From: Muribaculaceae bacterium
Lineage (GTDB): Bacteria; Bacteroidota; Bacteroidia; Bacteroidales; Muribaculaceae
DNA: 64,000 bases
Assembly (NCBI GenBank): GCA_051871275.1
Contig: JBJECR010000116.1
Span: 6,775-70,774 of the forward strand
Direction of reading: 5' to 3'
Shown one piece after another: positions 1 to 28,010 of the stretch. The translations under genes and the position numbers were made by a program. Numbering within the stretch: the first letter of the stretch is position 1; each line of letters starts with the position of its first letter. The notes below the pieces were generated by a model. That model searched no databases, was not told where the DNA came from, and saw only the letters and a list, made by a program, of their open reading frames with translations.

Positions 1-912
1 CAGGTTGATGAAGAGGATATTGAAGACTACGATGACACAGATGAAACAGACGATGTAGAAGCCGACGTTGATGAAGATGTTGACACAACGGATAATGCCA
101 GTACAACGTCTTCTAATACTCATACGTCTAACACATCTCACGCTTCATCAAACAAACCCCATAAGGATTATGATTCTGACCGCAATGGATACATGGGATC
201 TGTTGATAAGGACAAGAATTATCAACCTGTTGGCGACAGACCTTACAAACCTCGTACACGTAAGCATCCGAAGATTTTCACCAAAAAGGAATTAGAACGC
301 CTTCGCTCACATGGAACGCCTCTTGAACTGGAATCATTACCACCAACGAGGGAGGAAATAGACCTCTTAGCTCAATGTAACATCAAGCCAGAGCAGATTG
401 CCGACACCAACTATCTTGCTCAGTTGCGTCTGTACCAGAACCTCAGAAATGAGATGCACGCAGAGCCTGAGGAAACAATGGAAGAGTTCGTGCATAATGC
501 TAGTGATGTAACAGTACACAAACTTAAAGATGGTAGATACATTCATACTTGTAGTGCTGCTCGTGGCGTGATGTATGCTTCTCCTTCTGTATGGAATAAG
601 ATGGTTGATGACAAGTGGAAGATATGCGTTTATCTTGATGGACAAGGCAAGAACTTCCATTACATTAACAATGCCGAGGAATTCCTGAAACTCGTAGAAA
701 AAGACGATGTTGTTATCAAGATTACTGGTAAGGAGAAGGTTGATGTAGTAAGGGCTCTTTATACAGGCATACTAGAAGATGCCAGAGGTACTGCATACAC
801 CTTGATTCGTGTGGCGGCTCGTACAAATATGGATGCCGTATTCGCTCACTATGTTGGTGCTATGGCAGAAGCGGAAGATGGTAACGATGATTACAACGAT
901 AACGACTATTGA
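1..912 (+). CDS. Hypothetical protein, 5'-truncated by the window edge. It has an acidic D/E-rich then S/T/N-rich low-complexity tract, followed by a globular C-terminal domain and an acidic tail.
   Basis: Frame 1 is open from nt 1 (QVDEEDIEDYDDTDETDDVEADVDEDVDTT...) straight into the ORF-track entry 193..912, so the true start lies upstream of the window. The stop TGA at 910-912 overlaps or abuts the start of the next gene (TTG 909 / ATG 915). I recognise no family. Confidence 0.55.
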   Translation, partial: QVDEEDIEDYDDTDETDDVEADVDEDVDTTDNASTTSSNTHTSNTSHASSNKPHKDYDSDRNGYMGSVDKDKNYQPVGDRPYKPRTRKHPKIFTKKELERLRSHGTPLELESLPPTREEIDLLAQCNIKPEQIADTNYLAQLRLYQNLRNEMHAEPEETMEEFVHNASDVTVHKLKDGRYIHTCSAARGVMYASPSVWNKMVDDKWKICVYLDGQGKNFHYINNAEEFLKLVEKDDVVIKITGKEKVDVVRALYTGILEDARGTAYTLIRVAARTNMDAVFAHYVGAMAEAEDGNDDYNDNDY

Positions 913-3254: not shown

Positions 3255-3255
3255 T

Positions 3256-4926: not shown

Positions 4927-5037
4927 TCCAACTTTAGTCGAAATCTTAGTCGAAGTGTATAAACTTAAAATTGTAATATTCTGATAATCAGCTATTATAT
5001 TTCTATTATGTGTTAGTAGAACAAAATTTATTTAGTC
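4912..5037 (+). promoter_or_regulatory. Iterated TTAGTC(R)AA motifs: four phased copies plus two more upstream of the XRE gene.
   Basis: TTAGTC occurs at 4912, 4923, 4934 and 4946 (spacing 11, 11, 12 nt), and again at 5032, with a TTAGTA variant at 5013. The array spans the end of the AlbA_2 gene and the intergenic region before the XRE gene (ATG 5060). Confidence 0.45.
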
Positions 5038-5059
5038 GAACTCAAAGAAAGCGAAAGAT

Positions 5060-5347
5060 ATGTTATTCGGAGACAAAATCAGAGAACTCAGAGACGAGCA
5101 AGGTTTGTTGCAACGCCAACTGGCAGCTGCATTAGAGATTGATACCCCCATGTTCAGCAAGATTGAGCGTGGAGACAGACGAGCCAAACGAGAGCAAGTA
5201 GTCAAACTTGCAAAATTGCTGCATCAGGATGAAAACGAGATGCTGAAACTATGGCTTGCCGACAAAGTGATAGATGCAGTTGGGGATGAAAATGACCATA
5301 TTCTGAAACACGATGCCATAGAAATGGCACAAAAAACAATCTTGTAA
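5060..5347 (+). CDS. XRE-family helix-turn-helix transcriptional regulator.
   Basis: LRELRDEQGLLQRQLAAALEIDTPMFSKIERGDRRAKREQVVKLAKLL is a canonical HTH_3/Cro-C1 pattern. The gene lies 10 nt upstream of the next gene. Confidence 0.85.
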   Translation: MLFGDKIRELRDEQGLLQRQLAAALEIDTPMFSKIERGDRRAKREQVVKLAKLLHQDENEMLKLWLADKVIDAVGDENDHILKHDAIEMAQKTIL

Positions 5348-5357
5348 GACAACGATT

Positions 5358-8204
5358 ATGGATGCAGACACCCTCATGAGAAGATTGCATGAGTTGGAAG
5401 AGGAGAACAAACGGTTGAAGTCTCTTCTTTCCGAACATGGCATACCGTTTGAAGCGTATACTCATGATGGGAATCTTACTGCGTCCCAATTCTCAAACTC
5501 GACGGATTCAACCATCAGCCTTTCTTTGCAGGAAAAGGTTGAGCTGTTCCAAAGCCTATTCAAAGGGCGCGAGGATGTGTTTGCCCAAAGATGGTATAGC
5601 GATACGAGTAAGAAGTCAGGCTATCAGCCAGTATGCGAACGAGAATGGAACCGAGAGTTCTGCGACAAGCGTAAATACAAATGTTCAGAATGTCCTAACC
5701 GAAAGTTCGCTCCACTATCATACGAACATATATTCAATCACCTTGCGGGTAAGGATGCCTATGGCCGTGATGTAGTTGGCTTATATCCGCTGTTAAATGA
5801 TAATACCTGCTATTTCCTCTGTACCGATTTTGATGACAAGAGTTGTGAGCATGGGTATCAGCAAGATGTGCTTGCTTTTACAAGTGTATGCAAGGAATGG
5901 GGAGTTCCTTGCTATATAGAGCGGTCACGTTCCGGCAATGGAGCACATGTGTGGGTGTTCTTTGAGAGTGCCATCGTAGCCATAAAGGCAAGACGACTGG
6001 GAAAGTCAATTCTGTCAGAGGCTATGAATAAGGACGTGCATCTTTCCTTCAAAGCGTACGACCGGTTTTTCCCCAATCAAGACACCTTACCCGAAGGCGG
6101 AATGGGAAACCTCGTAGCCCTACCCTTACAAGGACAGGCACGAAGGAATGGAAACAGCATTTTTGTAGATGAAAGTTTCCAGCCTTATCCCGACCAATGG
6201 GTATTCCTTCTCAGTATTCAGAAAATGTCAGAGGCAACCGTTGATGCCATTCTACAAGAACACGCTTCGACATTGGGTGAATTGACAAAAAGCAGCGAGG
6301 GAAAGCCTTGGGAAACACCTAAGCCAGAGACTATTGACCAATCAGATTTCCCGACAAGTATATCATTGACAAGGGCGAATATGCTGTACGTCCCTTTGGG
6401 TTGTCTGTCGGCAAAGGCTGTCAACTATTTCAAGCGAATGGCAGCATTCCATAATCCTGAGTTTTATGCAAGGCAAGGTATGCGGCTGTCAACCCATGAT
6501 GTTCCTCGTATAATATCATGCTCAGAATTGACGGACAACTTTATAGCCCTGCCTCGTGGATGCGAGGATGATGTGGTGAATCTCCTTGAAGCAAACAATG
6601 TTGAATACTTCATAGATGACAAGACCAGCCATGGGCGAACCATTGATGTGTCATTCAAAGGTGAACTTCGTGAAGAACAACAACGAGCCATGTCCTCTAT
6701 GTTTCCTCATCCTGTAGGCACACTGTCTGCCACAACGGCTTTTGGGAAAACCGTGTTTGCTATTGCGATGATTGCTCAAAGGAAATTGAATACGTTGATA
6801 TTGGTACACAGGAAATCTCTGCTCGACCAGTGGAAAAAGCAAATGAAAGACTTTTTGGAAATAAGCGAAGTCGTAGAGGATAATTCAAAACGACGGAAGA
6901 AAAATCTTTCGCCCATAGGGGAACTATGCTCGGGAAAGGACTCTCTGCATGGAGTGATTGACATTGCCTTGATACAATCATGCTTGGAGAACAACGAGGT
7001 CAAACCTTCCGTTAGAGACTATGGCATGGTGATTGTCGATGAATGTCATCATGTCTCATCTGTGAGCTTTGAACAAGTACTGAAACAGGTAAACGCCCGT
7101 TATGTTTATGGACTTACAGCTACTCCTATACGCAAGGACGGACATCAGCCCATCATCTTTATGCAATGTGGAAAGATACGATATACTGCAGATGCTAAAA
7201 GTCAGATGGACAGACAGAACTTTGTCCGTACCCTAATACCGCGTTTCACATCTTTCCGTAATGTTTTGCCCGACAACAAAACATATACTCAAACCATAGA
7301 GGCTTTATCGACAGACGATGTGAGAAACAAGCTCATCATAGAGGATGTGAAAAAGGAAATTGCAGAAGGACGGACTCCCATTATCCTTACCAATTTGACA
7401 TCCCACGTGAGGATTCTTACGGATTTGTTGCTGCCTCATGCAATGCATGTAGTCAGTCTTGTCGGTGCAGACTCTGCGAAAGAGAAGAGGATTGCAATGG
7501 AAAAATTGGAGAACATTCCCGCATCCGATACGTTAGTCATAGTTGCCACAGGCAAATACATCGGTGAAGGTTTCGACTATTCTAGACTTGACTCGCTGTT
7601 TCTTGCGCTACCCATTTCATGGAAAGGGAATATAGCCCAATATGCAGGCAGATTGCATCGGGATTATGAGGGAAAGAATGAAGTGCGCATCTTTGACTAT
7701 GTTGACATACGCATTCCCCTCTGCGATTCCATGTATAGAAAGCGATTGAGAGGGTACGCATCTGTGGGTTATGGTGTCACGAAGCCAACAGAAGGAAACA
7801 GCGTTTCAAAGCGAGAATTGATTTACGATGGTCAGACTTTTTCAGAACCATTCCGTCAAGACCTGCTTACAGCCAAACATAGCATAGTCATCTCCTGTCA
7901 GAAGATAAAGTTCAATTATGCACCTCGATTACTATATCTTTTACGAGACCTTATGACCAATGGTATTGAAGTTGTTATTTGGGTCAAGGAACAAGGCATT
8001 AGCGAAAATGAATTACGGAATAATGGCATAGAAGTACAATGCGACGAAACTCTGTCAGTGCAATGTGCGATAATTGATAAATCCACAGTCTGGTACGGTA
8101 GCATCAACTTCTTTGGTTACAACACAGAAGAGAACAACGTGATACGAATCGCTGACTCATTCATAGCCAATGAACTGCTGGATATTATATATGGACAGTG
8201 TTAA
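5358..8204 (+). CDS. Fusion protein: coiled coil, archaeo-eukaryotic primase (AEP/Prim-Pol) domain, SF2 DExH helicase, and a degenerate PLD-like C-terminal domain.
   Basis: AEP motifs: FLCTDFDD (motif I), SRSGNGAHVWVFF (motif II), YDRFFPNQD..GNLVALPLQG (motif III region). Helicase motifs: ATTAFGKT (Walker A), IVDECHHV (DExH), GLTATP, GEGFDY, QYAGRLHR. C-terminus: SVQCAIIDKSTVWYGSIN fits HxKxxxxDxxxxxxGSxN with H->S and K->Q (nt 8055-8108). From memory, similar N-terminal domains are labelled 'TOTE conflict system AEP domain'; this is not verified here. Confidence 0.8.
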   Translation: MDADTLMRRLHELEEENKRLKSLLSEHGIPFEAYTHDGNLTASQFSNSTDSTISLSLQEKVELFQSLFKGREDVFAQRWYSDTSKKSGYQPVCEREWNREFCDKRKYKCSECPNRKFAPLSYEHIFNHLAGKDAYGRDVVGLYPLLNDNTCYFLCTDFDDKSCEHGYQQDVLAFTSVCKEWGVPCYIERSRSGNGAHVWVFFESAIVAIKARRLGKSILSEAMNKDVHLSFKAYDRFFPNQDTLPEGGMGNLVALPLQGQARRNGNSIFVDESFQPYPDQWVFLLSIQKMSEATVDAILQEHASTLGELTKSSEGKPWETPKPETIDQSDFPTSISLTRANMLYVPLGCLSAKAVNYFKRMAAFHNPEFYARQGMRLSTHDVPRIISCSELTDNFIALPRGCEDDVVNLLEANNVEYFIDDKTSHGRTIDVSFKGELREEQQRAMSSMFPHPVGTLSATTAFGKTVFAIAMIAQRKLNTLILVHRKSLLDQWKKQMKDFLEISEVVEDNSKRRKKNLSPIGELCSGKDSLHGVIDIALIQSCLENNEVKPSVRDYGMVIVDECHHVSSVSFEQVLKQVNARYVYGLTATPIRKDGHQPIIFMQCGKIRYTADAKSQMDRQNFVRTLIPRFTSFRNVLPDNKTYTQTIEALSTDDVRNKLIIEDVKKEIAEGRTPIILTNLTSHVRILTDLLLPHAMHVVSLVGADSAKEKRIAMEKLENIPASDTLVIVATGKYIGEGFDYSRLDSLFLALPISWKGNIAQYAGRLHRDYEGKNEVRIFDYVDIRIPLCDSMYRKRLRGYASVGYGVTKPTEGNSVSKRELIYDGQTFSEPFRQDLLTAKHSIVISCQKIKFNYAPRLLYLLRDLMTNGIEVVIWVKEQGISENELRNNGIEVQCDETLSVQCAIIDKSTVWYGSINFFGYNTEENNVIRIADSFIANELLDIIYGQC

Positions 8205-8839: not shown

Positions 8840-9640
8840 CTAAAACCACTCCTCTTTCATTCTCTTAAGAAACTCCTTCGTGATAGGATACCCGGAGGCA
8901 TCTCCGAGCACGGCATCGGTGTGGCAATATGGGCAACATGCGGTTGCCTCTCCATTCTTTTCTGTATAGAATGTTGCTTCATTCGCTGAAAAGGTTTTCA
9001 GGCACGAAAAACAACCACATACTTTTGAATTGAGGACTGACTCCTTATTTTTGAATGAGGCTTGATGTGCTTTTTCTAAGTATTGGTATTCGGTAGTGAA
9101 CTTATAGCATATCCGTTTCACCGCCTCCTCGGATACATGATGTCCACCGGGTATGAAGTAGAAACAACCTATCTCATCACCGTATATATCTTGATATCTG
9201 TCACCTAACAATTCATCATCCGCTGCAAAGTATGCTGTAATTCGCTGCTTATCCGCATCATTTATCTGTTTGAGCTGAGGTTCAAAGGCTGCATAAGTGG
9301 CAACCATCTCCGGTGACGGTGCAGGCAGTCCGTTATGTGGACCTAACTTAGGCAACTCCACGGATGGAGAATAGCAAGGGTTGATGACAATACGCTGAAT
9401 GCCTGTTGTCAACAGCGTCAGGAAACCACCGAGCGAAGAGCCGACAACAAGGTCAATGTGTTCACTCTCAATAGTTTCTCGTATTTGTTTCAGGGCTGTA
9501 GCACAGTCTTCTTGACAATAGTCCATCCCTATAACCTGCCATTCTTCTGCGGGCATATACTTCCTGAACAGGCGGCAACTGCCACCTTCCGGAGAGCCGT
9601 TATAACCATGAATATAGAGTAACTTTTTCATAAGGGTCAT
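8840..9640 (-). CDS. YqiA/UPF0227-like alpha/beta hydrolase fused to a C-terminal 4-Cys zinc-ribbon-like domain.
   Basis: LLYIHGYNGSPEG at the N-terminus, nucleophile elbow VVGSSLGGF, and late GGHH. The C-terminal ~65 aa contain CGCFSC ... CCPYCHTD ... EEWF. Confidence 0.7.
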   Translation of the reverse strand: MTLMKKLLYIHGYNGSPEGGSCRLFRKYMPAEEWQVIGMDYCQEDCATALKQIRETIESEHIDLVVGSSLGGFLTLLTTGIQRIVINPCYSPSVELPKLGPHNGLPAPSPEMVATYAAFEPQLKQINDADKQRITAYFAADDELLGDRYQDIYGDEIGCFYFIPGGHHVSEEAVKRICYKFTTEYQYLEKAHQASFKNKESVLNSKVCGCFSCLKTFSANEATFYTEKNGEATACCPYCHTDAVLGDASGYPITKEFLKRMKEEWF

Positions 9641-9796: not shown

Positions 9797-11299
9797 TTAA
9801 TACTGACGTATGCGAACACGTGCAAATATGTCTTTGCTGTGTTCGTTAATATGATTAAGAAGGCGTTCGAAATCGGCTTTACGCCACATCTTGGCAATCA
9901 TTGCTACGCCGTTCTTTTCCGAACCATTCCACACAAGACCATATCCTAATCCGGAATCGTCATCTATGGTTGATTTATGTACAATCGGGTACAAATCCCA
10001 AGGAGCATCTTTTATCTCCACGCTGAAACCGGACTCGGTAACTGCATTAACTTCATCCGTAGAATGCCAGATAAGACTGTCATACGATTTCGTGGTGCGG
10101 TTGTAATAAGAGTTGATGGTAGTCGGGAATGCTGCTCGAACTTCTTCAAGCGTTTTTCCGGGATTGAGTTTCATCCACTGCATAAAGAATACTGCAGCAG
10201 CCTTGCTTTTCGACAACGGTTTTGCATATTCGGGTATTGGTTGCCAATCTGCTCCATCGCCATTCTCATCTATCTCAACCATATACTTGACGGTATCTCT
10301 TCTGCTTTTCTTGAATACATCCATCAACTCCGACTCGTTACCGGGTGCAATTTTAGACTTGCAAACATAAAGGATGGTGTTGAACAGCGAGATATTGTAG
10401 TCCCAAAAGTTTTGCAGCAATTCTGCGGCTTCCGTATCCTCTACCAATGTGCCGATAATCTTCTCTGCCTTATCGCCTCCGACTACCGTTATGGCTGCAT
10501 CAATCAATGGCTTATAGTTATCGTATAGGGTGTTGATATCATCACGACACTCTTTCAAAATTGCCATAATCGTATTGACAAGTTTCATCGGGTCTTTCTC
10601 TTCATCCGCAGATTTGGTAGCAGGTGTGCCAAGTGTATTGATATAAGCATTTACCAAGCTCTTTGCATCGTTAGGCATAGCATACGACGTCAGAGGCTCA
10701 ATCACATTGTCCAAAAGTTGCTGATAAGTAATATTTGTAAAATCGCTGCAAGAAGGTGCGGTCTCGTCAGGAGTTAGAAAAATCTCTACTGAAAAATCGG
10801 TATGCTCAATTTTATTGAATGCCTCCACTGCTTTATGATATCTCACGGTTTGCTCTTCGCCCTCACCGGAATATATCTTGTTTTCAACAGCCAGAGGAAT
10901 CCTGTAACGATTTCCATCATTGTCGATTACCCATACGTGCATCCAAATGTCTATGCGGTCCTTTTCGTTCGTACCGGATATATCACGTAAGAGTTTTTCA
11001 GTGGTACATTCATCTACTTCAATCGAATAATTGCCGCTAAGCAGAAGAGCGTCCAAATCAGTTCTTTTAGAAGCAACATGGGTGTATAGAGCCAATAGCT
11101 TCTTAATCGGTTCGACACCTAAAGCATGATCGGATTGAGGATCCAAAAGCCAGCAAAGAAATGCACTGTGACGATTCTCATTTCGCTCAACCTTTAAAAC
11201 ATTAAACACATTTTTCTTAGAATAGTATGCTGACATTTTTTGGAACTTACTATCATTCTGCATTGATAATAAGTACGTTTTTACTTCTTTATTATTCAT
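9797..11299 (-). CDS. PD-(D/E)XK nuclease-superfamily protein (PDDEXK_4-like N-terminal half) with a C-terminal half of unknown function.
   Basis: FNVLKVERNENRHSAFLCWLLDPQSDHALG ... DRIDIWMHVW ... IPLAVENKIYSGEGEEQTVRY gives the D ... E-x-K arrangement and the HSxFLxWLLxP signature of that family. The start lies 39 nt downstream of the preceding gene on the same strand. Confidence 0.6.
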   Translation of the reverse strand: MNNKEVKTYLLSMQNDSKFQKMSAYYSKKNVFNVLKVERNENRHSAFLCWLLDPQSDHALGVEPIKKLLALYTHVASKRTDLDALLLSGNYSIEVDECTTEKLLRDISGTNEKDRIDIWMHVWVIDNDGNRYRIPLAVENKIYSGEGEEQTVRYHKAVEAFNKIEHTDFSVEIFLTPDETAPSCSDFTNITYQQLLDNVIEPLTSYAMPNDAKSLVNAYINTLGTPATKSADEEKDPMKLVNTIMAILKECRDDINTLYDNYKPLIDAAITVVGGDKAEKIIGTLVEDTEAAELLQNFWDYNISLFNTILYVCKSKIAPGNESELMDVFKKSRRDTVKYMVEIDENGDGADWQPIPEYAKPLSKSKAAAVFFMQWMKLNPGKTLEEVRAAFPTTINSYYNRTTKSYDSLIWHSTDEVNAVTESGFSVEIKDAPWDLYPIVHKSTIDDDSGLGYGLVWNGSEKNGVAMIAKMWRKADFERLLNHINEHSKDIFARVRIRQY

Positions 11300-11338: not shown

Positions 11339-12982
11339 TTATACAAGATTCTCTATTTCTTTTGTTTTGAGGTTATAATATTCTTCCAACGATATAGATT
11401 TTTGCAAATCACGAAGAGTTTTATCCTTACCATCCGGTAATAAAGTTCTTAATGTAATTCTATTAAAGAATGACTCACATATGGTAACAATATAGTCGGT
11501 TCTCCATTCGCGTCCTTGCAACTTATAACCTACGACGTAGTCATCGAAAAGATTTAAGTGTTCAGGATAAATGAATGTGCATTGCGATTCATCATTATAT
11601 GCCGGGCACAGTTTCTCGGCGTCAAACGATTGAACATCTTTTGCAAACCAATGTTGTACACCGGGACAGTCCGTATGACAAAGAGAGTTAGGCATGATGA
11701 TTAATTTATCACGTAGGTTTGTAAAGCTTTTTAGTATGTTCAACGAACGCGTAAATGGATAGAACATTACAATATAGTCATAATAAGTGAAATCCATCTT
11801 CCGAATGTCTTTACAGAGCCGCTGAACAATACTTGAAATAACTAACAAATTCGGATTATACTCTTTTATAATTTTTGCATTTTTGTCATTAGCAATAATA
11901 AAGCCACAAGCTCCTAATTTGGTATAGTAGTCTAAAAGTTCTTTTGATATTACGCTATCCCTATCTTGCCATAGGACGACAAATCTCAGATTTCCGGATT
12001 TTATTAAATGCATATGGTATTCATATTCCTCACGCGACTGAGGCATATATGAACGACCTTTCATCTTGCTTTGCAAGTATGTCCTCGTATTGAAAGTATC
12101 ATCCTTGTAAGGAGGGAGAAATAGGAAATTAATGAAGCCGGAATATTTCTCATAATAAGGAAGAATTTCTTCATCAAAATTATATGGAACTTCAAACTTC
12201 TTTATTTTCAAGGACCGAGCGTCAGATGTAGTTAATGAATTCGTTTCAATTGCAACTCCATTGCATACGTCTAATAGCGTGCGTGTTATTTGTGAGACAA
12301 AATCGAACGGGCAACTAAACGTAGTACATTTATCTTGTCGGTACACAGTATAAGCATAAGAAAACAAATAGACAACCGGAATATCAAGTATTTGACCAAT
12401 ATATTTCACAATAGGTTCGGATGTTACAATAGCCTTTATTCGGCTACGGTTCTTTATTATTTCATCGATTTCTATCAATTCTCTGAAATCATAAGCACCT
12501 TCCAACAAAACCTCTCTCTTTGTACCACAACACACAGGGGAGAGACCGTTGTCGCATAAATTCGCAACAACTTGTTTTAGATATGAAGAGATGAAGAATT
12601 CTCTTTCGTTTAAATAATAGCAAAAAAGAACAACTTTTTCTTTTGTAGCAAGTTGCTCGTCAATTTCATTCTTTTCTCTGACAAAGCCAAGATATGGGTG
12701 AAAGATGCCCTCATGTTGAACATTTAGAATGTTAGCAGTTTTCTCACACAGAATCCGGAATGGTGCATAATCCGGCAAATCCAAAACGAGCACACTATCT
12801 TCTTCTTTTTCCTTAGGATGACCAATATTCACATTTTCAAGTTTGCCGAGATATTTCGAAGCGATGTCTGTCCTAACAACATTATAGCATTCTTTGGACA
12901 CATTTACGACTGTTGCCACAGCTGCAGCTTTAATCTCATCGTACCCTGAGTTTGTTTTTTTGATATATATCCAATTTTTCAT
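11339..12982 (-). CDS. Two-domain Cys-rich protein of unknown function, the last gene of the RiPP-like operon. The C-terminal half is possibly U32-like (TIM-barrel).
   Basis: 547-aa ORF starting 6 nt after the rSAM stop. Cys pairs are SPVCCGTK and CTTFSCPFD, and a C-terminal cluster reads LCHTDCPGVQHW-x-KLCPAYNDESQCTF (C-x3-C-x19-C-x8-C). The alternating beta/alpha-like pattern (RFVVLWQ, GFIIANDKNAKIIKEYNPNLLVISS, YIVMFYP) only loosely recalls the peptidase-U32 / UbiU-UbiV family. The function call is weak. Confidence 0.55.
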   Translation of the reverse strand: MKNWIYIKKTNSGYDEIKAAAVATVVNVSKECYNVVRTDIASKYLGKLENVNIGHPKEKEEDSVLVLDLPDYAPFRILCEKTANILNVQHEGIFHPYLGFVREKNEIDEQLATKEKVVLFCYYLNEREFFISSYLKQVVANLCDNGLSPVCCGTKREVLLEGAYDFRELIEIDEIIKNRSRIKAIVTSEPIVKYIGQILDIPVVYLFSYAYTVYRQDKCTTFSCPFDFVSQITRTLLDVCNGVAIETNSLTTSDARSLKIKKFEVPYNFDEEILPYYEKYSGFINFLFLPPYKDDTFNTRTYLQSKMKGRSYMPQSREEYEYHMHLIKSGNLRFVVLWQDRDSVISKELLDYYTKLGACGFIIANDKNAKIIKEYNPNLLVISSIVQRLCKDIRKMDFTYYDYIVMFYPFTRSLNILKSFTNLRDKLIIMPNSLCHTDCPGVQHWFAKDVQSFDAEKLCPAYNDESQCTFIYPEHLNLFDDYVVGYKLQGREWRTDYIVTICESFFNRITLRTLLPDGKDKTLRDLQKSISLEEYYNLKTKEIENLV

Positions 12983-12988
12983 ATCTTC

Positions 12989-13987
12989 CTATAGTCTAAA
13001 GTGTCCTTCTTCATGAAAGTGACTTAGTGTATGCGCCAAACAACCTCCTGAACATAACTCCATCTCAAAATTTTTACAAGTATCGCATTGTTGATATACG
13101 CCTTTAATCTCTTTGCGGTAGTTCTCCTGTATCATATTGAAATATGAATATAACTCTTCATACGTTTGAAAATCTTTTAATGATTTTCTATTAATATTAG
13201 ACAATGGGAAACAAGACCAACAAGTGAGATCCGGGCCAATATCGATTGTAGGACCGCAATCAAATGATAATGCATTTCTCGTGTACTTATACAACAAGCC
13301 TATTTCTTCGTCGGTAAACATGCACATGGGGAATCCGCAGTCAAGTCCCGGATGAATTTTCAAGTCGTACATTTTTCTTAGTCCATCCATCAATTTAATC
13401 TTAGCTTGTTTAAAGTCGGCGGGGGCAATGTACTCATTCTGAGAATCCGGAATCGGATTCGCAATTCCAAATCGGACATGTCTTCTTAATCCATATTTTA
13501 AGATATAGTCCTCCAGAAAATCAATATTAAAATCTAACCTATAGATGTTGAAACTAAGTGCACACAAGCTACCTAAAGACCTAAGAAATTTATGTACTTT
13601 CAAAAGTTCACTTTGGGAAGAAAGGAGCGGTTCGTTGACATTAACAACGAATTTAAGTTTGTTACTTTCCTTTATGGACTCCGCTTGCATTCTTTTTACG
13701 AAAGGCTCCAACTTATTGGAGGGCATAATTCCACTAGTAAAAATGCAGACCTCAAAACCTCTGTCTAATATCAAATATTCGATTATTTCTGCTACGCGAG
13801 GGTGAATCAGAGGTTCTCCACCTAACAATGAAATGCGGCTAATTCCTGATTTTTCCAAGAAATTCACAACATATACAAGATTTTCTTTTGGTATAGCACT
13901 CCGATCTTCAACGCCTTCCATATATTGTTTTGCAAAACAGTAAGGACATTTTCTAACACAAACTTCAGTCAACAACAAATTTGCCAT
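12989..13987 (-). CDS. Radical SAM enzyme with a C-terminal SPASM/twitch-like Cys-rich domain.
   Basis: CVRKCPYC is the CX3CX2C motif at aa 10-17. GGEPL is the SAM-binding motif. C-terminal cysteines: CGFPMC, CWSC, CDTCKNFEMELCSGGC. Confidence 0.9.
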   Translation of the reverse strand: MANLLLTEVCVRKCPYCFAKQYMEGVEDRSAIPKENLVYVVNFLEKSGISRISLLGGEPLIHPRVAEIIEYLILDRGFEVCIFTSGIMPSNKLEPFVKRMQAESIKESNKLKFVVNVNEPLLSSQSELLKVHKFLRSLGSLCALSFNIYRLDFNIDFLEDYILKYGLRRHVRFGIANPIPDSQNEYIAPADFKQAKIKLMDGLRKMYDLKIHPGLDCGFPMCMFTDEEIGLLYKYTRNALSFDCGPTIDIGPDLTCWSCFPLSNINRKSLKDFQTYEELYSYFNMIQENYRKEIKGVYQQCDTCKNFEMELCSGGCLAHTLSHFHEEGHFRL

Positions 13988-14006
13988 TTAGGATTTAATT
14001 TTAGAT

Positions 14007-14558
14007 TTACACACTTATTGTTCTCACACTATTCACAAAAATCGATTTCTCGTATTTAAGCTTATCTAAAGATTTATAAATAGTAGTTCTATCTCTAGCT
14101 ACTTCTTTAAAGCAGAGGCTTTCTTGAAATTTATCAGCACGCCGATTGTTTATACTACAAGTTGTTTTAAGAGCATATTTATAAAGCAGAATAAAGTCTA
14201 ATAAAGTCACTAAGGAGCGAAAAATCTCCTTAAAATATTTTCTATCATGGTCCCAAGTACCACCGTGAAAAATCACTTCTCCTCTTTTGTGAAAATTTTC
14301 TTCTAAATATACCATTCCTCTTGGAGTGTTCGTTGCCCTGTCACACCACACGAGTATAACGACATTTGCACAAGTAGATATATCTTTCAAGTCACCCTCC
14401 ACCATACCGGGGAAAATTTTTTGCCAATCGTCGTTAGTATACTTTGAAACAATATCCTCTTCTTGGGGATTATACCATCTAAAATACATTTTATCAACAG
14501 GATTACTGTACTCCCGGAAATGTTCTTCAAATAGAGATTTGAGTCCTTTTGTCTTCAT
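14007..14558 (-). CDS. GNAT-fold-like protein, a putative N-acetyltransferase.
   Basis: 183 aa. The pattern MVYLEENFHKRGEVIFHGG ... FKEIFRSLVTLLDFIL ... LKTTCSINNRRADKFQESLCFKEV resembles GNAT beta4-alpha3-beta5-alpha4 (the N..A..fyeklGF-type ending). The assignment comes from pattern only. Confidence 0.45.
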   Translation of the reverse strand: MKTKGLKSLFEEHFREYSNPVDKMYFRWYNPQEEDIVSKYTNDDWQKIFPGMVEGDLKDISTCANVVILVWCDRATNTPRGMVYLEENFHKRGEVIFHGGTWDHDRKYFKEIFRSLVTLLDFILLYKYALKTTCSINNRRADKFQESLCFKEVARDRTTIYKSLDKLKYEKSIFVNSVRTISV

Positions 14559-14566
14559 TCACCTTA

Positions 14567-15568
14567 TTACATAACAGGAAGACAATTGCAAAGGCAATCA
14601 ACCATTGCCTCACTCATAGGAATTTTGCATAAGTCTTCAATCCAACCCCATTGTCCATTCGGATTGCACTCAAGAAAAACATACTCGTCTTCAGGAGTCA
14701 AGATAAAATCAAAACAGCCAAAGTTGAGATTGAGTCGAGATAGGTATTTTTTGCAGAATTCAGCAATAATGTCCGGAGTTGGTATTATCTCGTGTTTTAG
14801 TCCGTGATCATATCCTTGACGCCAATCTATCGAACCCGTCATTTCAGTTTGTCTCTGCGAGTCCAACATACACGTAAATATATGTGGTCCCATAACAGTA
14901 ACTCTCAATTCATATTTTTTCTCCACATACTGCTGTGCAAAGACTACCGTTTGTGAAAATGCCTCTTGTGGTTGATTCATCAACTGTTTAGAAGGAATTT
15001 TTTGTGTACACAAATCAAACACCTTCTCGTCTGCAGTTTTCATCCAGTGATTACGGAGACACTTTAAGCTTATATTGTCAAAGTCTCTGGAAAAGTTTAC
15101 GATATCAGTTTTCGAGTTAGAAATACAGGTAGGGGCAATTTTCATTCCTAACTCTACTGCAATTTTCGATTGAATCATTTTAGAATTTGCTCTCTTGTCA
15201 TACAGATGATGCCCAATAGAATAAATATCTGTGAGATAATGCATCAAATACAAAAAGAACTGTTTACTTTCCACTATGTTATGCCTGTCGACTTCTTCGT
15301 TAATAGTATATGGAAGATATTTAGGGAAGTCCGGTTTTCTATACCATACCGACTTTATCTCATGCCCCCAAATAATAGCATTTGTGGAACGGTCTTTGAT
15401 ATAAAAATCGGGTGTCTCGCCATTATTATGAAACCAAGCAAAAGTATAATCCACCATCAAAGCCTCAGTATTCAACCTAAAGAAAGGAATGTTGTCTCTT
15501 TTCATTAAATTGATTACTGAGGTCGGGTGAAAATCACTTTTATCTGTGAGAATTAGGATTTTCCTCAT
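14567..15568 (-). CDS. ATP-grasp peptide macrocyclase of the MdnC/MvdD (graspetide ligase) type.
   Basis: Colinear with microviridin ligases as I recall them: ILILTDKSD..FFRLNTE (cf. VLIVTFSRD..FRFDTD), SVWYRKP (cf. AVWYRR), ELRVTVMGPHIF (cf. ELRITIVGEQIF), IDWRQ, and LNFGCFDFILTPEDEYVFLECNPNGQWGWIE (cf. LNYGAIDMIVTPDERYIFLEINPVGEFFWLE). Confidence 0.9.
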   Translation of the reverse strand: MRKILILTDKSDFHPTSVINLMKRDNIPFFRLNTEALMVDYTFAWFHNNGETPDFYIKDRSTNAIIWGHEIKSVWYRKPDFPKYLPYTINEEVDRHNIVESKQFFLYLMHYLTDIYSIGHHLYDKRANSKMIQSKIAVELGMKIAPTCISNSKTDIVNFSRDFDNISLKCLRNHWMKTADEKVFDLCTQKIPSKQLMNQPQEAFSQTVVFAQQYVEKKYELRVTVMGPHIFTCMLDSQRQTEMTGSIDWRQGYDHGLKHEIIPTPDIIAEFCKKYLSRLNLNFGCFDFILTPEDEYVFLECNPNGQWGWIEDLCKIPMSEAMVDCLCNCLPVM

Positions 15569-15644
15569 TTACAAAAAGTACAATTAACTGATGTTTCGCA
15601 AGCTCAACTATAAAGGAGTCTAAACTTTTGAAACTTCAATACAA

Positions 15645-15878
15645 TTAATCGTCTGTCCAATGTTCTGCATCGTTATGCTCATAGTAACCGCCACCGTTTT
15701 TTTCCTTAGTACTTTTGTACCCATCATAACTCCGAGAACCTGAAGAACTACCACCTCCCATTAAGAAAGTTATCTGTTCTTTGGGATCATACACAATCTG
15801 CATCTCTCTATCCGAAATCACCTGCGGTTCTTCGGGAACCATAAAGTTGGCAATCAAAGGATTTACTGTTATTCTCAT
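15645..15878 (-). CDS. Putative graspetide-type precursor peptide (77 aa).
   Basis: MRITVNPLIANFMVPEE... contains P-L-I-A-N-F-M, resembling the microviridin leader motif PFFARFL. A Gly/Ser linker (GGGSSSGS) follows. The C-terminal stretch SYDGYKSTKEKNGGGYYEHNDAEHWTDD is rich in Ser/Thr/Lys donors and Asp/Glu acceptors. There is no Cys. It lies 76 nt upstream of the ATP-grasp gene on the same strand. Confidence 0.65.
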   Translation of the reverse strand: MRITVNPLIANFMVPEEPQVISDREMQIVYDPKEQITFLMGGGSSSGSRSYDGYKSTKEKNGGGYYEHNDAEHWTDD

Positions 15879-15944: not shown

Positions 15945-16193
15945 TTATTTTTTTAAATAACTTTCAATTTCATCAACAGATATTTCCCCTCCAATCCAGT
16001 CCTTAGTAGCATGTGAAGAATCTATGCTTATTTTTCTTGATTTAAGTCCTTCTCCATTGTAATCAATTGTAACTCGACAAGAATTGAAAAGATCAATTAT
16101 CAATTTACCATCACCTTCTTCTGATTTTGAAATATTGCGGATAATACATAACGCAACATCTATATCTGTCAATTTAATCTTCATATTTTTCAC
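15945..16193 (-). CDS. Small hypothetical protein (82 aa, or 79 aa from the ATG at 16184).
   Basis: ORF-track entry with no signal peptide and no recognisable motifs. It directly abuts the upstream 68-aa ORF. Confidence 0.45.
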   Translation of the reverse strand: MKNMKIKLTDIDVALCIIRNISKSEEGDGKLIIDLFNSCRVTIDYNGEGLKSRKISIDSSHATKDWIGGEISVDEIESYLKK

Positions 16194-16400
16194 CTAACCT
16201 TTTATTTCCTTCACAATCCAATTACCGGGTGATGCCCAACTATCGGCACGAACTGTGAAATCGGCACGATGAAGTGCTTCTTTAACCTCACTTATATCAG
16301 GTGCAAAACCTGTTCTTGATGATACAACTTGTAATATGAACCCCTTTGGGATACTTGCATCCACAAAGTCTCTTGGGGATTGAAGTAAGAAAGTTTTCAT
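16194..16400 (-). CDS. Small hypothetical protein (68 aa).
   Basis: ORF-track entry. It vaguely resembles small Bacteroidota-specific DUF proteins (IPKGFILQVVSS...SPGNWIVKEI). The family is not established. Confidence 0.45.
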   Translation of the reverse strand: MKTFLLQSPRDFVDASIPKGFILQVVSSRTGFAPDISEVKEALHRADFTVRADSWASPGNWIVKEIKG

Positions 16401-16690: not shown

Positions 16691-19600
16691 TTACAATTTG
16701 CCTTTTACAGAAGCAACGCCGTCACTAAAATTGTATGCTTCAATAAATTTAGGTTCTGCAATCCAAGCACCGGTCTTGTCTATAAAGCCATATTTCCTGC
16801 CGATTCTTACCTTAGCTATGCCGTTTACAAAACTGAACGCATCATCAAATTGAGGTTCTATAATAACAGTTCCCGTCTTGTCTATATAGCCCCATTTACC
16901 GTCAATTTTTACTTCGGCAATGCCGTCTTCAAAACTTCTTACAAAATCAAATTGCGGCTCTGCAATCCAGGCTCCGGTCTTGTCAATTAAGCCATATTTA
17001 CCGCCTATTTCTACTGCGGCAACACCTTCCCTAAAATCGCGTGCATCATCAAATTGCGGCTCTGCAATCCAGGTTCCGGTCTTGTCTATATAGCCATATT
17101 TTCCGTCAATTTTTACATAGGCAATGCCATCAACGAAATCTCCTGCTTCTTCAAATTTTTGCTTTACAATAAATGCTCCTGTTTTATCAATATAGCAATA
17201 TTTTTTGCCAACTTCTACTAAGGCTATGCCGTCTTTGAAATCGTAGACAAACTTAAATTTCGGCTTCGCAATCCACGCTCCTGTCTTATCTATAAAACCC
17301 CATTTACGGTCAATTATTGCAGAGGCAATGCCATCAACGAAATTTCCGACATAATCATATTTCGGCTCTATAATCCAGGCTCCAGTCTTGTTTATATAGC
17401 CCCATTTACCGTCAATTTTTGCTTTTGCTATGCCGTCTTCAAAATTCTCTGCTTTTTCAAATTGCGACTCTATAATCCATGCTCCCGTCTTGTCTATATA
17501 GCCCCATTTACCGTCAATTTTTGCTCTGGCTATGCCGTCTTCAAAATTCTCTGCTTTTTCAAATTGCGACTCTATAACCCATGCTCCCGTCTTGTCTATA
17601 TAGCCATACTTACCGCCAATTTTTACATAGGTAATGCCGTCTTCAAAGTGCCATGCATCATCAAATTGAGGTTCTATAATCCAGGCTCCGGTCTTGTCTA
17701 TATAACCATATTTATCGCCAATTTGAACCGGGGCTATGCCGTCTTCAAAAGACCATACTTTATCAAATTTCGGATCTATAACCCAGGCACCGGTCTTGTC
17801 AATTAAGCCATATTTACCGCCTATTTCTACTGCGGCAACACCTTCCCTAAAATCGCCTGCATCATCAAATTGCGGATCTGCAATCCAGGTTCCGGTCTTG
17901 TCTATATAGCCCCATTTAGCGTCAATTTTCGCTTTGGCTACGCCGTCTTTAAAACTATCTACATCATCAAATTTCGGCTCTATAACCCACGCTCCCGTCT
18001 TATCTATATAGCCATCTTTCCAGTTGATTTGTGCTCGGGCAATGCCGTCTTCAAAACTTCTTACAGAATCAAATTGCGGCTCTGCAATCCAGGCTCCGGT
18101 CTTGTCAATTAAGCCATATTTATCGCCAATTCTTACTTTGCCAAAACCATCTCTAAAATCTTCTGCACCATCAAATTGAGGTTCTATAACCCACGCTCCG
18201 GTCTTGTCTATATAGCCCCATGTACCGTCAATTTTCGCTTTGGCTACGCCGTCTTTAAAATCGCCTACATCATCGAATTTCGGCTCTATAACCCAGGCTC
18301 CGGTCTTATATATATAGCCATCTTTCCAGTTGATTCTTGCTTTGGCAATGCCGTCTTTAAAATGGAATGCATAATCAAATTGCGGCTCTATAACCCATGC
18401 TCCGGTCTTGTCTATATAGCCCCATTTACCATCAATTTCCACTTTTGCAATGCCGTCTTCAAAGTGCCATGCATCATCAAATTGAGGTTCTATAATCCAG
18501 GCTCCGGTCTTGTCTATATAACCATATTTACCGCCAATTTTTACATAGGTAATGCCGTCTTGAAAATCTTCTGCATCATCAAATTGCGGCTCTATGATCC
18601 ATGCTGCGGTTTTGTCTATATAACCCCATTTATCGTCAATTTCTGCTGCGGCTATGTCATCTTTAAAACGCCATACATCATCAAATTGCGGATCTATAAC
18701 CCAGGCTCCCGTATTGTTTATATAGCCACATTTACCCTCAATTTTTGCTTTTGCTATGCCGTCAAGAAAATCTTGTGCTTCGTCAAATTGCGGCTCCGCA
18801 ATCCATGCACCGGTCTTGTCTATATAGCCCCATTCACCATCAATTTCTACCCTGGCAATGCCGTCTTTAAAATCTTCTGCTTCATCAAATTGCGGCTCTG
18901 CAATCCATGCTCCGGTCTTGTCTATATAGCCCCATTTACCATCAATTTCCACTTTTGCAATGCCGTCTTCAAAGTGCCATGCATCATCAAATTGAGGTTC
19001 TATAATCCAGGCTCCGGTCTTGTCTATATAACCATATTTACCGCCAATTTTTACACTGGCAATGTCATCGCAAAATTCTTTTGCTTCATCAAATTGCGGC
19101 TCTATAACCCATGCTCCGGTCTTGTCTATATAGCCCCATTCACCATCAATTTCTACCCTGGCAATGCCGTCTTTAAAATCTTCTGCTTCATCAAATTGCG
19201 GCTCTATAATCCATGCTCCCGTCTTATCTATATAGCCACATTTAGGTACTCTCTTTTCTTCGTTATCCTCATCTTCGTCGTCATAAACAGACCAAATCTG
19301 TTCTTCATCTATTTCTCTTGAGTCCATAGGGTAGCAGTCTGTATAGGCTACTCCATCATAGACAAAAGCAATAAGCATTGGCTCGTCAATGTCGTTAGGA
19401 TATATAAAATCGCGGCACATAAGATGAGCCTTTTTTGGATCAAATTCTTCATCCTCCGGTATCTCGATATTAAAATTACAGGAAGACTTGTTGATATGGC
19501 AAATACCTGTGTCCGCTTCGACATTTTCAAAAAATTCCGCAGCAACAACTTCTCCCATTCCTTCAAATTCTTCATTACCATAGTCTCCTTCATCAAAATC

Positions 19601-19774
19601 TTCAGGAGTATATCGCTTGTCATCAATTATAAAAACAAGGTCTTCTTCCGCAGAGAATCGGGAAATACCATCAATTAAATCGCCTGCCCCATCTTGAGCA
19701 TAAAGTTCTTTCTCAATTCCAAAAATGCTGACCGATACTGATTTCTTAGCCTTTTCGCCTTTTTTTGTTTTCAT
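16691..19774 (-). CDS. WG-containing-repeat (KWG/WG_beta_rep) protein: a ~175-aa acidic non-repeat N-terminal domain plus 25 tandem 34-aa repeats.
   Basis: I counted 25 consecutive units of G(Y/L/F)IDKTGAW(I/V)IEPQFD.A..F.DGIA.V.I.GKW, each exactly 34 aa. The N-terminus MKTKKGEKAKKSVSVSIFGIEKEL... has no signal-peptide-like hydrophobic segment or lipobox. Confidence 0.85.
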   Translation of the reverse strand: MKTKKGEKAKKSVSVSIFGIEKELYAQDGAGDLIDGISRFSAEEDLVFIIDDKRYTPEDFDEGDYGNEEFEGMGEVVAAEFFENVEADTGICHINKSSCNFNIEIPEDEEFDPKKAHLMCRDFIYPNDIDEPMLIAFVYDGVAYTDCYPMDSREIDEEQIWSVYDDEDEDNEEKRVPKCGYIDKTGAWIIEPQFDEAEDFKDGIARVEIDGEWGYIDKTGAWVIEPQFDEAKEFCDDIASVKIGGKYGYIDKTGAWIIEPQFDDAWHFEDGIAKVEIDGKWGYIDKTGAWIAEPQFDEAEDFKDGIARVEIDGEWGYIDKTGAWIAEPQFDEAQDFLDGIAKAKIEGKCGYINNTGAWVIDPQFDDVWRFKDDIAAAEIDDKWGYIDKTAAWIIEPQFDDAEDFQDGITYVKIGGKYGYIDKTGAWIIEPQFDDAWHFEDGIAKVEIDGKWGYIDKTGAWVIEPQFDYAFHFKDGIAKARINWKDGYIYKTGAWVIEPKFDDVGDFKDGVAKAKIDGTWGYIDKTGAWVIEPQFDGAEDFRDGFGKVRIGDKYGLIDKTGAWIAEPQFDSVRSFEDGIARAQINWKDGYIDKTGAWVIEPKFDDVDSFKDGVAKAKIDAKWGYIDKTGTWIADPQFDDAGDFREGVAAVEIGGKYGLIDKTGAWVIDPKFDKVWSFEDGIAPVQIGDKYGYIDKTGAWIIEPQFDDAWHFEDGITYVKIGGKYGYIDKTGAWVIESQFEKAENFEDGIARAKIDGKWGYIDKTGAWIIESQFEKAENFEDGIAKAKIDGKWGYINKTGAWIIEPKYDYVGNFVDGIASAIIDRKWGFIDKTGAWIAKPKFKFVYDFKDGIALVEVGKKYCYIDKTGAFIVKQKFEEAGDFVDGIAYVKIDGKYGYIDKTGTWIAEPQFDDARDFREGVAAVEIGGKYGLIDKTGAWIAEPQFDFVRSFEDGIAEVKIDGKWGYIDKTGTVIIEPQFDDAFSFVNGIAKVRIGRKYGFIDKTGAWIAEPKFIEAYNFSDGVASVKGKL
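16694..19246 (-). repeat. 102-bp tandem coding repeat array (25 units) inside the WG-repeat gene.
   Basis: The periodicity is seen at both the DNA and protein level. Units 3 and 8 are identical at the protein level. Units 1/4 and 17/18 differ by 1-2 residues. Unit 16 is a mosaic of the head of units 3/8 and the tail of unit 7. Confidence 0.9.
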
Positions 19775-27994: not shown

Positions 27995-28010
27995 AGTTTG
28001 TGTATTGGGG

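Follow-up and report, generated by a model that had tools for sequence, protein, structure and literature searches.

We analyzed a 64,000-nt stretch of contig JBJECR010000116.1 from a Muribaculaceae metagenome-assembled genome (MAG), hereafter the window. Five adjacent genes on its minus strand (11339-15878) constitute a recurring cassette that we consider, with a probability of about 0.75, to be a biosynthetic unit for a ribosomally made peptide with modifications introduced after translation (RiPP), of the graspetide class and with further tailoring. The product is most likely a ring-closed ribosomal peptide. The cassette encodes a precursor peptide, an ATP-grasp ligase, a GNAT-fold protein, a radical S-adenosylmethionine (rSAM) enzyme and a large fusion protein whose C-terminal half is probably a divergent member of the U32 family. 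What appears to be new, and undescribed, is the predicted coupling of a U32-family enzyme to ribosomal peptide pathways.

In the open reading frame (ORF) listing of the window, the five genes are co-directional. In operon order they encode the 77-aa precursor (15645-15878), the 333-aa ATP-grasp ligase (14567-15568), the 183-aa GNAT-fold protein (14007-14558), the 332-aa rSAM enzyme (12989-13987) and the 547-aa GT9-like/U32-like fusion protein (11339-12982), with intergenic gaps of 76, 8, 19 and 6 nt. An earlier reading of this DNA by itself (the original prediction) had described five minus-strand genes separated by 6-76 nt, and all five were found. The GC content of the cassette is 35.8% vs 41.8% in the left flank and 41.7% in the right flank. 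This AT-richness, from which the original prediction had proposed horizontal acquisition, is borne out (35.8% vs ~42% GC), and the differing genomic contexts of related loci fit the acquisition itself. The host-associated Bacteroidales background that had been proposed also agrees with the Muribaculaceae source. The annotation of the MAG lists both the 547-aa and the 183-aa protein as “hypothetical.” A scan for sigma-70 promoters and terminators returned scores no better than those of shuffled sequence.

The same five-gene order is kept in the window locus (L001) and in L002-4, L005-6, L007-8, L012, L017, L019 and L024, and L018 and L025 have this order without the rSAM gene. The cassette is syntenic across nine or more lineages of contigs whose flanks are unrelated and which, where named, are Bacteroidales. 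The 547-aa homologues range down to 42-66% identity with the window protein, and the five ORFs are intact in eight lineages. Thus, the arrangement is not due to chance, and the predicted association of the ATP-grasp, rSAM and 547-aa genes extends beyond the window genome, in the same order in the other cassette lineages. Proteins encoded in the flanks share no similarity across loci (seven cassette lineages compared), and no relatives were found in viral contigs. Among 185,579 GTDB species representatives, only one has the full cassette (L012) and only five, including L012, encode a relative of the U32-like domain; every relative is a Bacteroidales MAG. Judged from these sequence comparisons, the cassette is a real, horizontally mobile unit of gut and rumen Bacteroidales.

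The ATP-grasp protein is of the MdnC/MvdD type, as had been predicted. Its N-terminal domain matches PF21068, the MvdD pre-ATP-grasp domain (34.1 bits vs a cut-off of 27, 3e-8). The best NCBIfam model is TIGR04187 (2e-54, 184.9 bits, with a cut-off of 350 bits), and MvdC (4e-47, 160.9 bits) and MvdD (1.5e-41, 142.6 bits) also match. Residues 3-326 align colinearly with MdnB (5ig8; 6e-31), and homology is likewise full-length to AMdnB (7m4s), CdnC (7mgv) and MdnC (5ig9), with E-values of 6e-31 to 1e-23 overall. By homology, the ligase is an MdnB/CdnC-like, graspetide-type macrocyclase.

The small gene at the head of the operon is, to judge from its conservation, a genuine coding gene for a peptide with a graspetide-type leader. 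In the leader (residues 1-43; 15750..15878, minus strand), a P-L-I-x-N-F motif of the “Phhx(1,2)h” type (PLIANF in the window peptide) is followed by (I/V)YDPxxQIT and, at the end, by Gly-Gly. Phhx(1,2)h and GG are signatures of graspetide leaders (Makarova et al., PMC8939145), and portions of the supplement to that study contain actinobacterial graspetide precursors with similar PF[AG]L...YDPQxQ leaders. The likeness of the YDPxxQ motif to these actinobacterial leaders agrees with TIGR04187 being the best model for the ligase. The core (residues 44-77 plus stop; 15645..15749, minus strand) is GSSSGSRSYDGYKSTKEKNGGGYYEHNDAEHWTDD. It is rich in Asp, Ser, Thr and Lys and contains no Cys; indeed, as the original prediction had stated, there is no Cys in any of the 77 residues.

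Precursor alignments comprised 8-12 orthologues. Among 12 aligned sequences, T57, D76 and D77 of the core are invariant (12/12) and S50, G53, N69-D70-A71 and T75 are nearly so; Asp52 and Tyr54 are also conserved, as is the C-terminal Thr-Asp-Asp. Y65 and E72 occur only in precursors whose loci have the rSAM gene. An orthologue of the precursor gene lies immediately upstream of the ATP-grasp gene at every locus, and across cassette orthologues the peptides share 49-67% identity with that of the window. Nonsynonymous divergence (pN) is 0.21-0.38 vs a saturated synonymous divergence (pS) of 0.67-0.90, indicative of purifying selection. The conservation of this ORF, on which the original prediction depended, is therefore evident from identity, selection and leader type alike. 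The peptide has no family match in Pfam or NCBIfam, including Pfam Strep_pep, and its motifs had no match within portions of the supplements of two graspetide surveys.

The 76-nt spacer between the precursor and ATP-grasp genes (15569..15644, minus strand) contains a hairpin, which is a weak part of the description. The folded stretch of 82 nt (15569-15650, minus strand), which extends 6 nt into the 3′ end of the precursor gene, has a hairpin of −16.9 kcal/mol (z = −2.7) and then a U-run. By its predicted fold, this may be an attenuator that raises the level of the precursor transcript relative to the enzymes. The hairpin is not conserved, because the same spacer is much shorter (~24-27 nt) in L002, L007 and L017. 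At L019, a 311-aa ORF (2802-3737) with weak YhcG-type PD-(D/E)XK likeness is inserted between the precursor and ATP-grasp genes. Two ORFs upstream of the window precursor (82 and 68 aa; 15945-16400) were considered as extra precursors or components and discarded, as they are not conserved at other loci.

The rSAM enzyme matches PF04055 (2e-14) and Fer4_12, with CVRKCPYC (CX3CX2C, residues 10-17) and GGEPL both present. Across seven orthologues the invariant Cys are C10, C14, C17, C217, C222, C244, C256, C259, C301, C304, C312 and C316, and the nine C-terminal ones have the SPASM-like layout CX11(GX4)C...CX2CX7CX3C. The motifs and the SPASM/twitch-like tail that had been predicted are thus upheld. 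The Pfam SPASM model gave no match, and the C-terminal region had only weak YhhB and NirJ2 matches. Most NCBIfam matches are confined to the N-terminal 90-118 residues; NirJ2 is the sole full-length match (residues 7-321, E 7e-4), and there is a weak N-terminal likeness to TIGR02109 (E 1.6e-4). The enzyme is colinear with a StsB-like rSAM/SPASM protein of L011 (22% identity). Because CX3CX2C begins at residue 10, there is no N-terminal RiPP recognition element (RRE)/PqqD domain, which is typical, though not universal, in rSAM/SPASM peptide maturases. As the precursor is free of Cys, the enzyme would have to perform non-thioether chemistry. Identification of the protein as viperin (pVip) was rejected: the similarity is to the generic N-terminal core only (residues 2-92), with 46.5 bits in PADLOC and 43.3 bits in NCBIfam vs a cut-off of 180.

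Two loci have a four-gene variant of the cassette. In L018 (203-3719) the rSAM gene is cleanly deleted. In L025 (1503-5214) an N-terminal rSAM remnant with a broken CX3CX2C runs into the ORF of the 547-aa homologue (P0016, 588 aa). In neighbour-joining trees of the ATP-grasp and 547-aa proteins, L025 clusters with the rSAM-positive L002 and L024, and L018 is placed elsewhere. Since the two are not sister lineages, the rSAM gene was lost twice independently. The precursors of both loci have Pro32 changed (to Leu or His), have lost Tyr65 and have Pro in place of Glu72, whereas P32, Y65 and E72 are all kept in 8/8 rSAM-positive precursors. This pattern suggests that the rSAM enzyme may recognize the YDP leader motif. 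The loss of these residues in both rSAM-loss lineages also nominates Tyr65 and/or Glu72 as the target, for example of a PqqE-like Tyr-Glu carbon-carbon crosslink, an assignment that we offer as possible but rather doubtful. The non-thioether chemistry at Tyr, Trp or Lys that the original prediction had suggested would agree with this pattern.

The GNAT-like character attributed to the 183-aa protein survives at the level of fold, and not at that of a sequence-family match or an acetyl-CoA loop. Its AlphaFold2 (AF2) model has a predicted local distance difference test (pLDDT) score of 85. The best 50 Foldseek matches in the PDB are all GNATs, including FdhC, SpeG, RimJ and NatD (E ~1e-6 to 5e-5, TM 0.46-0.71, the best 0.6-0.7). 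In Pfam and NCBIfam the protein has no GNAT match, and it has no PADLOC family. On inspection, the canonical acetyl-CoA loop Q/RxxGxG/A is not visible, and the beta4-alpha3 region, FHGGTWDHDRKYFKE, has no Gly-rich loop. A below cut-off Pfam hit to Nuc_deoxyri_tr2 (E 0.006) is superseded by the GNAT fold result. Orthologues occur in every cassette. From the modeled fold, the protein would either transfer acyl groups or assist the ligase as a partner without catalytic activity of its own.

The large fifth gene does add a protein to the operon, as predicted, but its nature as a GT9-like/U32-like fusion had been missed. It had been called Cys-rich; with 16 Cys (2.9%), it is proportionally below the rSAM enzyme (4.2%). 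Searches of Pfam, NCBIfam and PADLOC, and of PDB sequences with both the sequence and a family profile, returned no match. The AF2 model (pLDDT 88) has two domains. The N-terminal domain (residues 1-257; 12212..12982, minus strand) is modeled with a double-Rossmann, GT-B-like fold closest to the GT9 heptosyltransferases. Foldseek matches include 1psw, TibC (4rb4/4rap) and 3tov (E 1e-5 to 5e-4), and GT9 enzymes (RfaF, TibC) are the best 21 matches and 24 of the best 29. Few polar residues of this domain are invariant (N50, D165, R167 and T187). The residues of the GT9 nucleotide-sugar motif are not kept: the region reads VTSEPIVKYIG where GT9 enzymes carry (D/N)(S/T)GPMH.

The C-terminal domain (residues 258-547; 11339..12211, minus strand) is modeled as a TIM barrel of a divergent U32 “peptidase/oxidase” type. 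Its best specific Foldseek match is the U32 protein Mk0906 (5d88; E 2e-4, TMt 0.56). A profile of the domain retrieved 239 representatives among 1.84 billion proteins. PF01136 (Peptidase_U32) matches 13 of 58 family members, at best with 4e-13, and no other Pfam family occurs in more than one member; the window domain itself does not match PF01136. The fold match to 5d88 and the PF01136 matches of family members suggest that the domain is a divergent member of U32. It contains a conserved cluster with the appearance of a metal-binding site, C435-x3-C439-x4-H444-x14-C459. Conserved family-wide are S384, N432, C435, C439, H444, C459, K487 and R491, and C502 is conserved in most cassette members. 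We conclude that the domain is probably a divergent U32-family protein with a metal or Fe-S site.

Homologues of this domain also occur outside the cassette. Standalone U32-like proteins, ~295 aa long and with 42-55% identity to the C-terminal domain, belong to a three-gene module, in which a StsB-like rSAM/SPASM gene (~445 aa) and a gene for a 33-43-aa peptide are directly followed by the U32-like gene. The module rSAM matches NF045574 (1e-35, below cut-off). The peptide ends in ...M(G/A)(R/K)L(K/R)(S/T)(G/H)C(S/T/G)CW..(W/Y)(F/Y/W)x(G/D), for example MGRLKSGCSCWxxxW(Y/F)xG, and is a credible candidate for a sacti- or ranthipeptide-like precursor. The module was seen in L009-11, in L013-16 and in 19 of 22 standalone metagenome loci (L026-L047), for example at 123-2663 of L011; two further loci of these 22 keep the rSAM gene and had no detected peptide. 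In all, the module is present at ~28 Bacteroidales loci from gut and rumen. Two other architectures were found: P0120 (728 aa) has an N-terminal radical SAM domain fused to a U32-like domain, and P0095 (507 aa) has a U32-like domain with a C-terminal region that weakly matches GT8. Together with the nine cassette lineages, the 28 modules tie the U32-like domain to peptide pathways in ~37 loci. In the literature searched we found no description of the three-gene module and no paper that links U32 proteins to RiPPs. Within U32, proteins that carry Cys motifs bind 4Fe-4S clusters, and genetic evidence implicates them in hydroxylating aromatic rings independently of O2, prephenate serving as the oxygen donor (PMC6747719, PMC10990095, PMC11574389).

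A wider clade of ligases helps to define the parts of the system. The ligases of L021 and L022 are 54-56% identical to that of the window, with the same type of precursor and the GNAT-fold gene kept; the L021 contig stops inside the GNAT-like gene. L022 (839-4245) has a ligase of 54% identity, the same leader type and the GNAT-fold partner, and lacks the 547-aa gene and thus any GT9/U32 protein. Its rSAM protein is a different one, with PqqD and SPASM domains (472 aa), and is encoded upstream of the precursor. In L023, the ligase is 49% identical and only the leader is similar. As the wider-clade loci keep precursor, ligase and GNAT-fold protein, these appear to be the core unit, to which the rSAM enzyme and the GT9/U32 protein would be accessories.

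In the pathway that we propose, the leader helix (PLIxNF) would be bound by the pre-ATP-grasp domain of the ligase, as in homologous systems, and the ATP-grasp domain would close side-chain omega-ester rings between Ser/Thr and Asp/Glu of the core, possibly with one amide at Lys55. The RRE-less rSAM/SPASM enzyme would then add a non-thioether modification, for which the covariation makes Tyr65 and/or Glu72 the likeliest sites. The GNAT-fold protein would either acylate the peptide or serve as an obligatory partner of the ligase. In a fourth step, the U32-type Cys/His metal centre of the 547-aa protein would act. By analogy, we tentatively favour a step in which a conserved aromatic residue is oxidized or hydroxylated without O2, at somewhat less than even odds, because the characterized Cys-motif U32 enzymes are Fe-S proteins implicated in aromatic-ring hydroxylation. 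Trp or Tyr is conserved in both U32-associated peptide families. Leader cleavage at this step is the chief alternative and somewhat less probable. The GT9-like domain might dock the substrate or transfer a glycosyl group. Export would take place in trans, as would leader removal after Gly-Gly unless the U32 domain performs it.

A broader proposal follows the same lines, and we advance it as speculation that is rather unlikely to hold in full. U32-family metal/Fe-S enzymes would be an unrecognized class of RiPP tailoring enzymes of gut anaerobes, carrying out O2-independent, prephenate-type oxidation or hydroxylation of aromatic residues alongside rSAM/SPASM maturases, and would do so for two or more peptide families that are not related to each other (graspetide and CxCW). 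In the cassette, an rSAM-made Tyr65-Glu72 crosslink would in addition be laid over ATP-grasp macrocycles, so that three or four distinct modifications would be made without oxygen.

Several observations weigh against the graspetide reading or its details. The ATP-grasp protein falls under every curated NCBIfam cut-off, and the GNAT-fold protein lacks a recognizable acetyl-CoA loop. The covariation that points to Tyr65 and Glu72 comes from two loss events only, and the distant L021 precursor, from the contig that stops inside the GNAT-like gene, also has Pro at position 72. The rSAM step is dispensable, because the cassette persists without it. For the 547-aa protein, TM scores of the GT9 fold matches are low (0.33-0.41), hhalign pairs the C-domain family profile only weakly with E. 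coli UbiU (E 0.009, probability 4.5%) and not at all with E. coli UbiV, and CX3CX4HX14C differs from the usual U32 pattern CX6CX15CX3/4C. No exporter, immunity gene or recognized leader peptidase is linked at any locus, which is unusual for secreted RiPPs. Finally, ring topology and rSAM chemistry are predictions here, as are the functions given to the GNAT-fold and 547-aa proteins.

With regard to export and leader removal, neither an ABC exporter nor a recognized leader peptidase lies within ~10 kb of the cassette in the window or at the other loci. The original prediction had reported that both were missing. Its statement holds for the exporter; for the peptidase it is uncertain, because U32, in which the C-terminal half of the 547-aa protein probably has its place, has long borne the name of a peptidase family.

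In the window, the region to the left of the cassette resembles a defence/conflict island (909-8204 and 9797-11299). In detail, it encodes a PIN_4 protein with an AAA_11/12 helicase (909-3254), an SLFN_AlbA_2 protein with HATPase_c_4 (3256-4926), a fusion of the TOTE conflict-system archaeo-eukaryotic primase (AEP) with a ResIII helicase (5358-8204) and, at 9797-11299, a PDDEXK_4 nuclease that matches PADLOC candidate PDC-S26. The last of these was considered as a part of the system and rejected: the PDDEXK_4 genes that lie downstream of the cassette, one in the window and one in L002, and the YhcG_C-type ORF of L019 are mutually dissimilar. The window also encodes a 266-aa UPF0227/YqiA-like alpha/beta-hydrolase (8840-9640, minus strand), whose additional Cys-rich C-terminal tail (CGCFSC...CCPYC) bears a very weak likeness to the BCAM0308 family. 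This gene is not conserved beside the cassette elsewhere.

Just upstream of the operon, a 1027-aa protein with 25 WG_beta_rep repeats is encoded at 16691-19774 (minus strand); an antisense ORF at 18176-19321 is probably an artefact of the repeats. Proteins with WG_beta_rep or LRR_5 repeats recur near the cassette or its wider family in four further contexts, unrelated to one another: L007 (415-2175), L017 (1264-3114 and 5137-5964), L019 (13003-14643) and L021 (2844-4451). Beyond SecDF, the window has genes for an AAA_14/DUF4143 ATPase and a DUF4172-Fic protein (23385-24668 and 26696-28117, minus strand); an AAA_14/DUF4143 gene adjoins the cassette in L002 and a Fic gene does so in L018. The graspetide locus of L022 is followed by a Lactamase_B gene and then by one for a 1513-aa nSTAND3 protein. 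Flanking genes were also screened as a hidden exporter, peptidase or immunity function and set aside, as they have no cross-locus likeness and Pfam identified only PDDEXK-like or HTH proteins among them.

Given this setting, the cassette could be an intracellular conflict or defence module, in which the 77-aa product, once modified, would work within the producing cell, for instance as a toxin, as a signal or as an enzyme inhibitor set free upon infection or stress. The region in the window resembles a defence island (PIN_4-helicase, SLFN_AlbA_2, TOTE AEP-helicase and PDDEXK_4 matching PADLOC PDC-S26), related loci adjoin PDDEXK_4, AAA_14/DUF4143, protein kinase and Fic genes, wider-family loci adjoin nSTAND3 and DUF87/FtsK/PLD/R2K, and the L009 three-gene module adjoins SLFN_AlbA_2. 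The absence of a linked exporter or peptidase from every locus fits as well. However, the flanking defence genes differ between loci, so the co-location may reflect insertion into variable islands, and cassette proteins match no PADLOC model save for the rSAM-core likeness to pVip (residues 2-92). The leader is of the double-glycine type, which is typical of exported peptides, and viral contigs hold no relatives. We therefore consider such a role improbable. A decaying or non-functional remnant, or a chance 77-aa ORF beside enzymes that act on some other substrate, might be imagined from the double loss of the rSAM gene, the lack of a linked transporter and the lack of a Pfam or NCBIfam family for the peptide, 183-aa and 547-aa proteins. 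Decay is very hard to reconcile with five ORFs intact in eight lineages at 547-aa identities down to 42-66%, with a small ORF that is always immediately upstream and conserved at the protein level despite saturated synonymous sites, and with enzymes that keep their invariant catalytic Cys and motifs; we give this explanation almost no credence.

A closer competitor concerns only the fusion protein: its U32-like domain may be the missing leader peptidase and not a redox tailoring enzyme, with the GT9-like domain doing nothing but dock the substrate. Reported collagenases, including PrtC of P. gingivalis, are the basis on which U32 was defined as a peptidase family. The single crystallized U32 member reportedly showed no protease activity, which counts against this function. 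Every RiPP pathway needs a leader peptidase and no other is linked, and the U32-like protein is the sole component common to the module of rSAM and CxCW peptide, the five-gene cassette and the rSAM-less four-gene cassette, whose cores are unrelated. Moreover, a hydrophobic-x-Met-Gly junction precedes the core in both peptide families, as (L/Y)MGG and (T/K)MGRLK. The original definition of the family is that of a peptidase (IPR001539), but the mechanism of the U32 “peptidase” is unknown and this role has been called only putative (PMC11574389), and the characterized members with Cys motifs are Fe-S hydroxylases (PMC6747719). The C-terminal domain retains its conserved Cys/His cluster, and the rSAM and U32-like fusion in P0120 suggests coupled redox chemistry. 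On balance, we regard a peptidase role as possible, although doubtful.

Taking the cassette as a graspetide biosynthetic unit, it offers, in five genes, a compact instance of the numerous SPASM-partnered graspetides, from Bacteroidales that abound in gut and rumen. The natural rSAM-minus variants nominate Tyr65 and Glu72, which makes the rSAM chemistry directly testable. If the U32-like domain is an oxidase, O2-independent hydroxylation would be extended from quinones and RNA to peptides, and if it is a peptidase, the U32 family would gain a defined proteolytic role. Either outcome would improve genome mining for RiPPs of anaerobes, where current rules would probably report “ATP-grasp plus hypothetical proteins.”

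One of the known systems nearest to the cassette is grasp-with-SPASM (“branch 5” of Makarova, group 14), whose operons likewise combine a small precursor with a graspetide-type ATP-grasp and an rSAM/SPASM enzyme. It is common in Bacteroidota, host-associated anaerobes and mobile elements included. Of the families found in ATP-grasp directons, SPASM maturases rank third in frequency, and they typify a Bacteroidetes-specific branch (PMC8939145), and one is present in all clusters of graspetide group 14 (PMC13097080), which alone comprises >1,600 clusters. Conjugative elements of P. gingivalis carry grasp-with-SPASM clusters (gwsG/gwsS; bioRxiv 10.64898/2026.08.04.741601). The original prediction had placed an rSAM/SPASM maturase outside the graspetide paradigm; as the pairing is already documented, and curated as grasp-with-spasm (TIGR04192/TIGR04193), that claim of novelty falls. 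In the literature searched, no paper on a characterized product of these systems was found.

The cassette is nevertheless, by its sequence affinities, a separate lineage and not a member of the grasp-with-SPASM system, because its ligase is below the TIGR04192 cut-off, its rSAM enzyme has no TIGR04193 match among those listed and its precursor is of another type. The ligase scores 108.8 bits (3e-31) against a TIGR04192 cut-off of 230 bits, and TIGR04187, MvdC and MvdD score higher. The rSAM enzyme is without an RRE, and TIGR04193 is absent among the best 25 of its 48 NCBIfam matches (weakest listed E = 0.0025), so that a match lower in the ranking would fall well short of the cut-off. The precursor is not of the PF14406/TIGR04139/TIGR04149 type, which usually contains Cys; it contains no Cys and has retained the Phhx(1,2)h motif, absent from branch 5 precursors (PMC8939145). 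The cassette also has neither a type I secretion system nor a peptidase-containing ABC transporter (PCAT), and has the GNAT-fold and GT9-like/U32-like proteins in addition.

The microviridin (MdnA-E) and chryseoviridin (CdnC) systems resemble the cassette in their leader-dependent ligases, as MdnB, MdnC and CdnC are homologous to the cassette ligase over its full length; in addition, the GNAT-fold protein in the operon recalls MdnD, and PLIxNF is analogous to PFFARFL. They differ in having two ligases rather than one, an unrelated core (TxKYPSDWEEY) and an ABC transporter, whereas the cassette GNAT has no sequence-level family match and rSAM and U32-like enzymes are added. The SAV_5884-type actinobacterial graspetides (TIGR04187, Strep_pep precursors), which include the graspimides, provide the best-scoring ligase model for the cassette (185 bits), although this is less than the 350-bit cut-off. 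Parts of the supplement to PMC8939145 show that they share the bipartite leader, P-h-h plus (V/I)YDPxxQ(I/L/M)(S/T). The cassette lacks their PIMT O-methyltransferase (TIGR04188), is from another phylum and has no Strep_pep match.

For the tailoring enzymes, PqqE/PqqA is a parallel in which an rSAM/SPASM protein makes a Glu-Tyr carbon-carbon crosslink. The cassette also pairs an rSAM/SPASM enzyme with a Cys-free peptide, its covarying residues are a Tyr and, seven positions further on, a Glu, and there is the weak TIGR02109 likeness. Unlike in that system, however, PqqD/RRE is missing, overall likeness is no better than to many rSAM families, and the crosslink is hypothetical. The U32 oxidases UbiU/UbiV, TrhP and RlhA (PF01136) share with the C-terminal domain a predicted TIM barrel (5d88), probable Pfam membership by transitivity and an anaerobic host, and in UbiU the Cys cluster follows the same beta-strand, with C176 corresponding to C435 in a low-confidence alignment. 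The window protein, in contrast, does not match PF01136, has CX3CX4HX14C in place of CX6CX15CX3/4C, presumably acts on a peptide, is fused to a GT9-like domain and is tied, by its genomic neighbours, to rSAM maturases of peptides. Corallotide and rosaritide (PMC13097080) are precedents for partner-dependent graspetide synthesis and for hydroxylation after macrocyclization; those pathways use a peptidyl-prolyl isomerase (PPIase)-like partner and an O2-dependent 2-oxoglutarate (2OG)-Fe(II) oxygenase, occur in aerobes and have no sequence relationship to the cassette.

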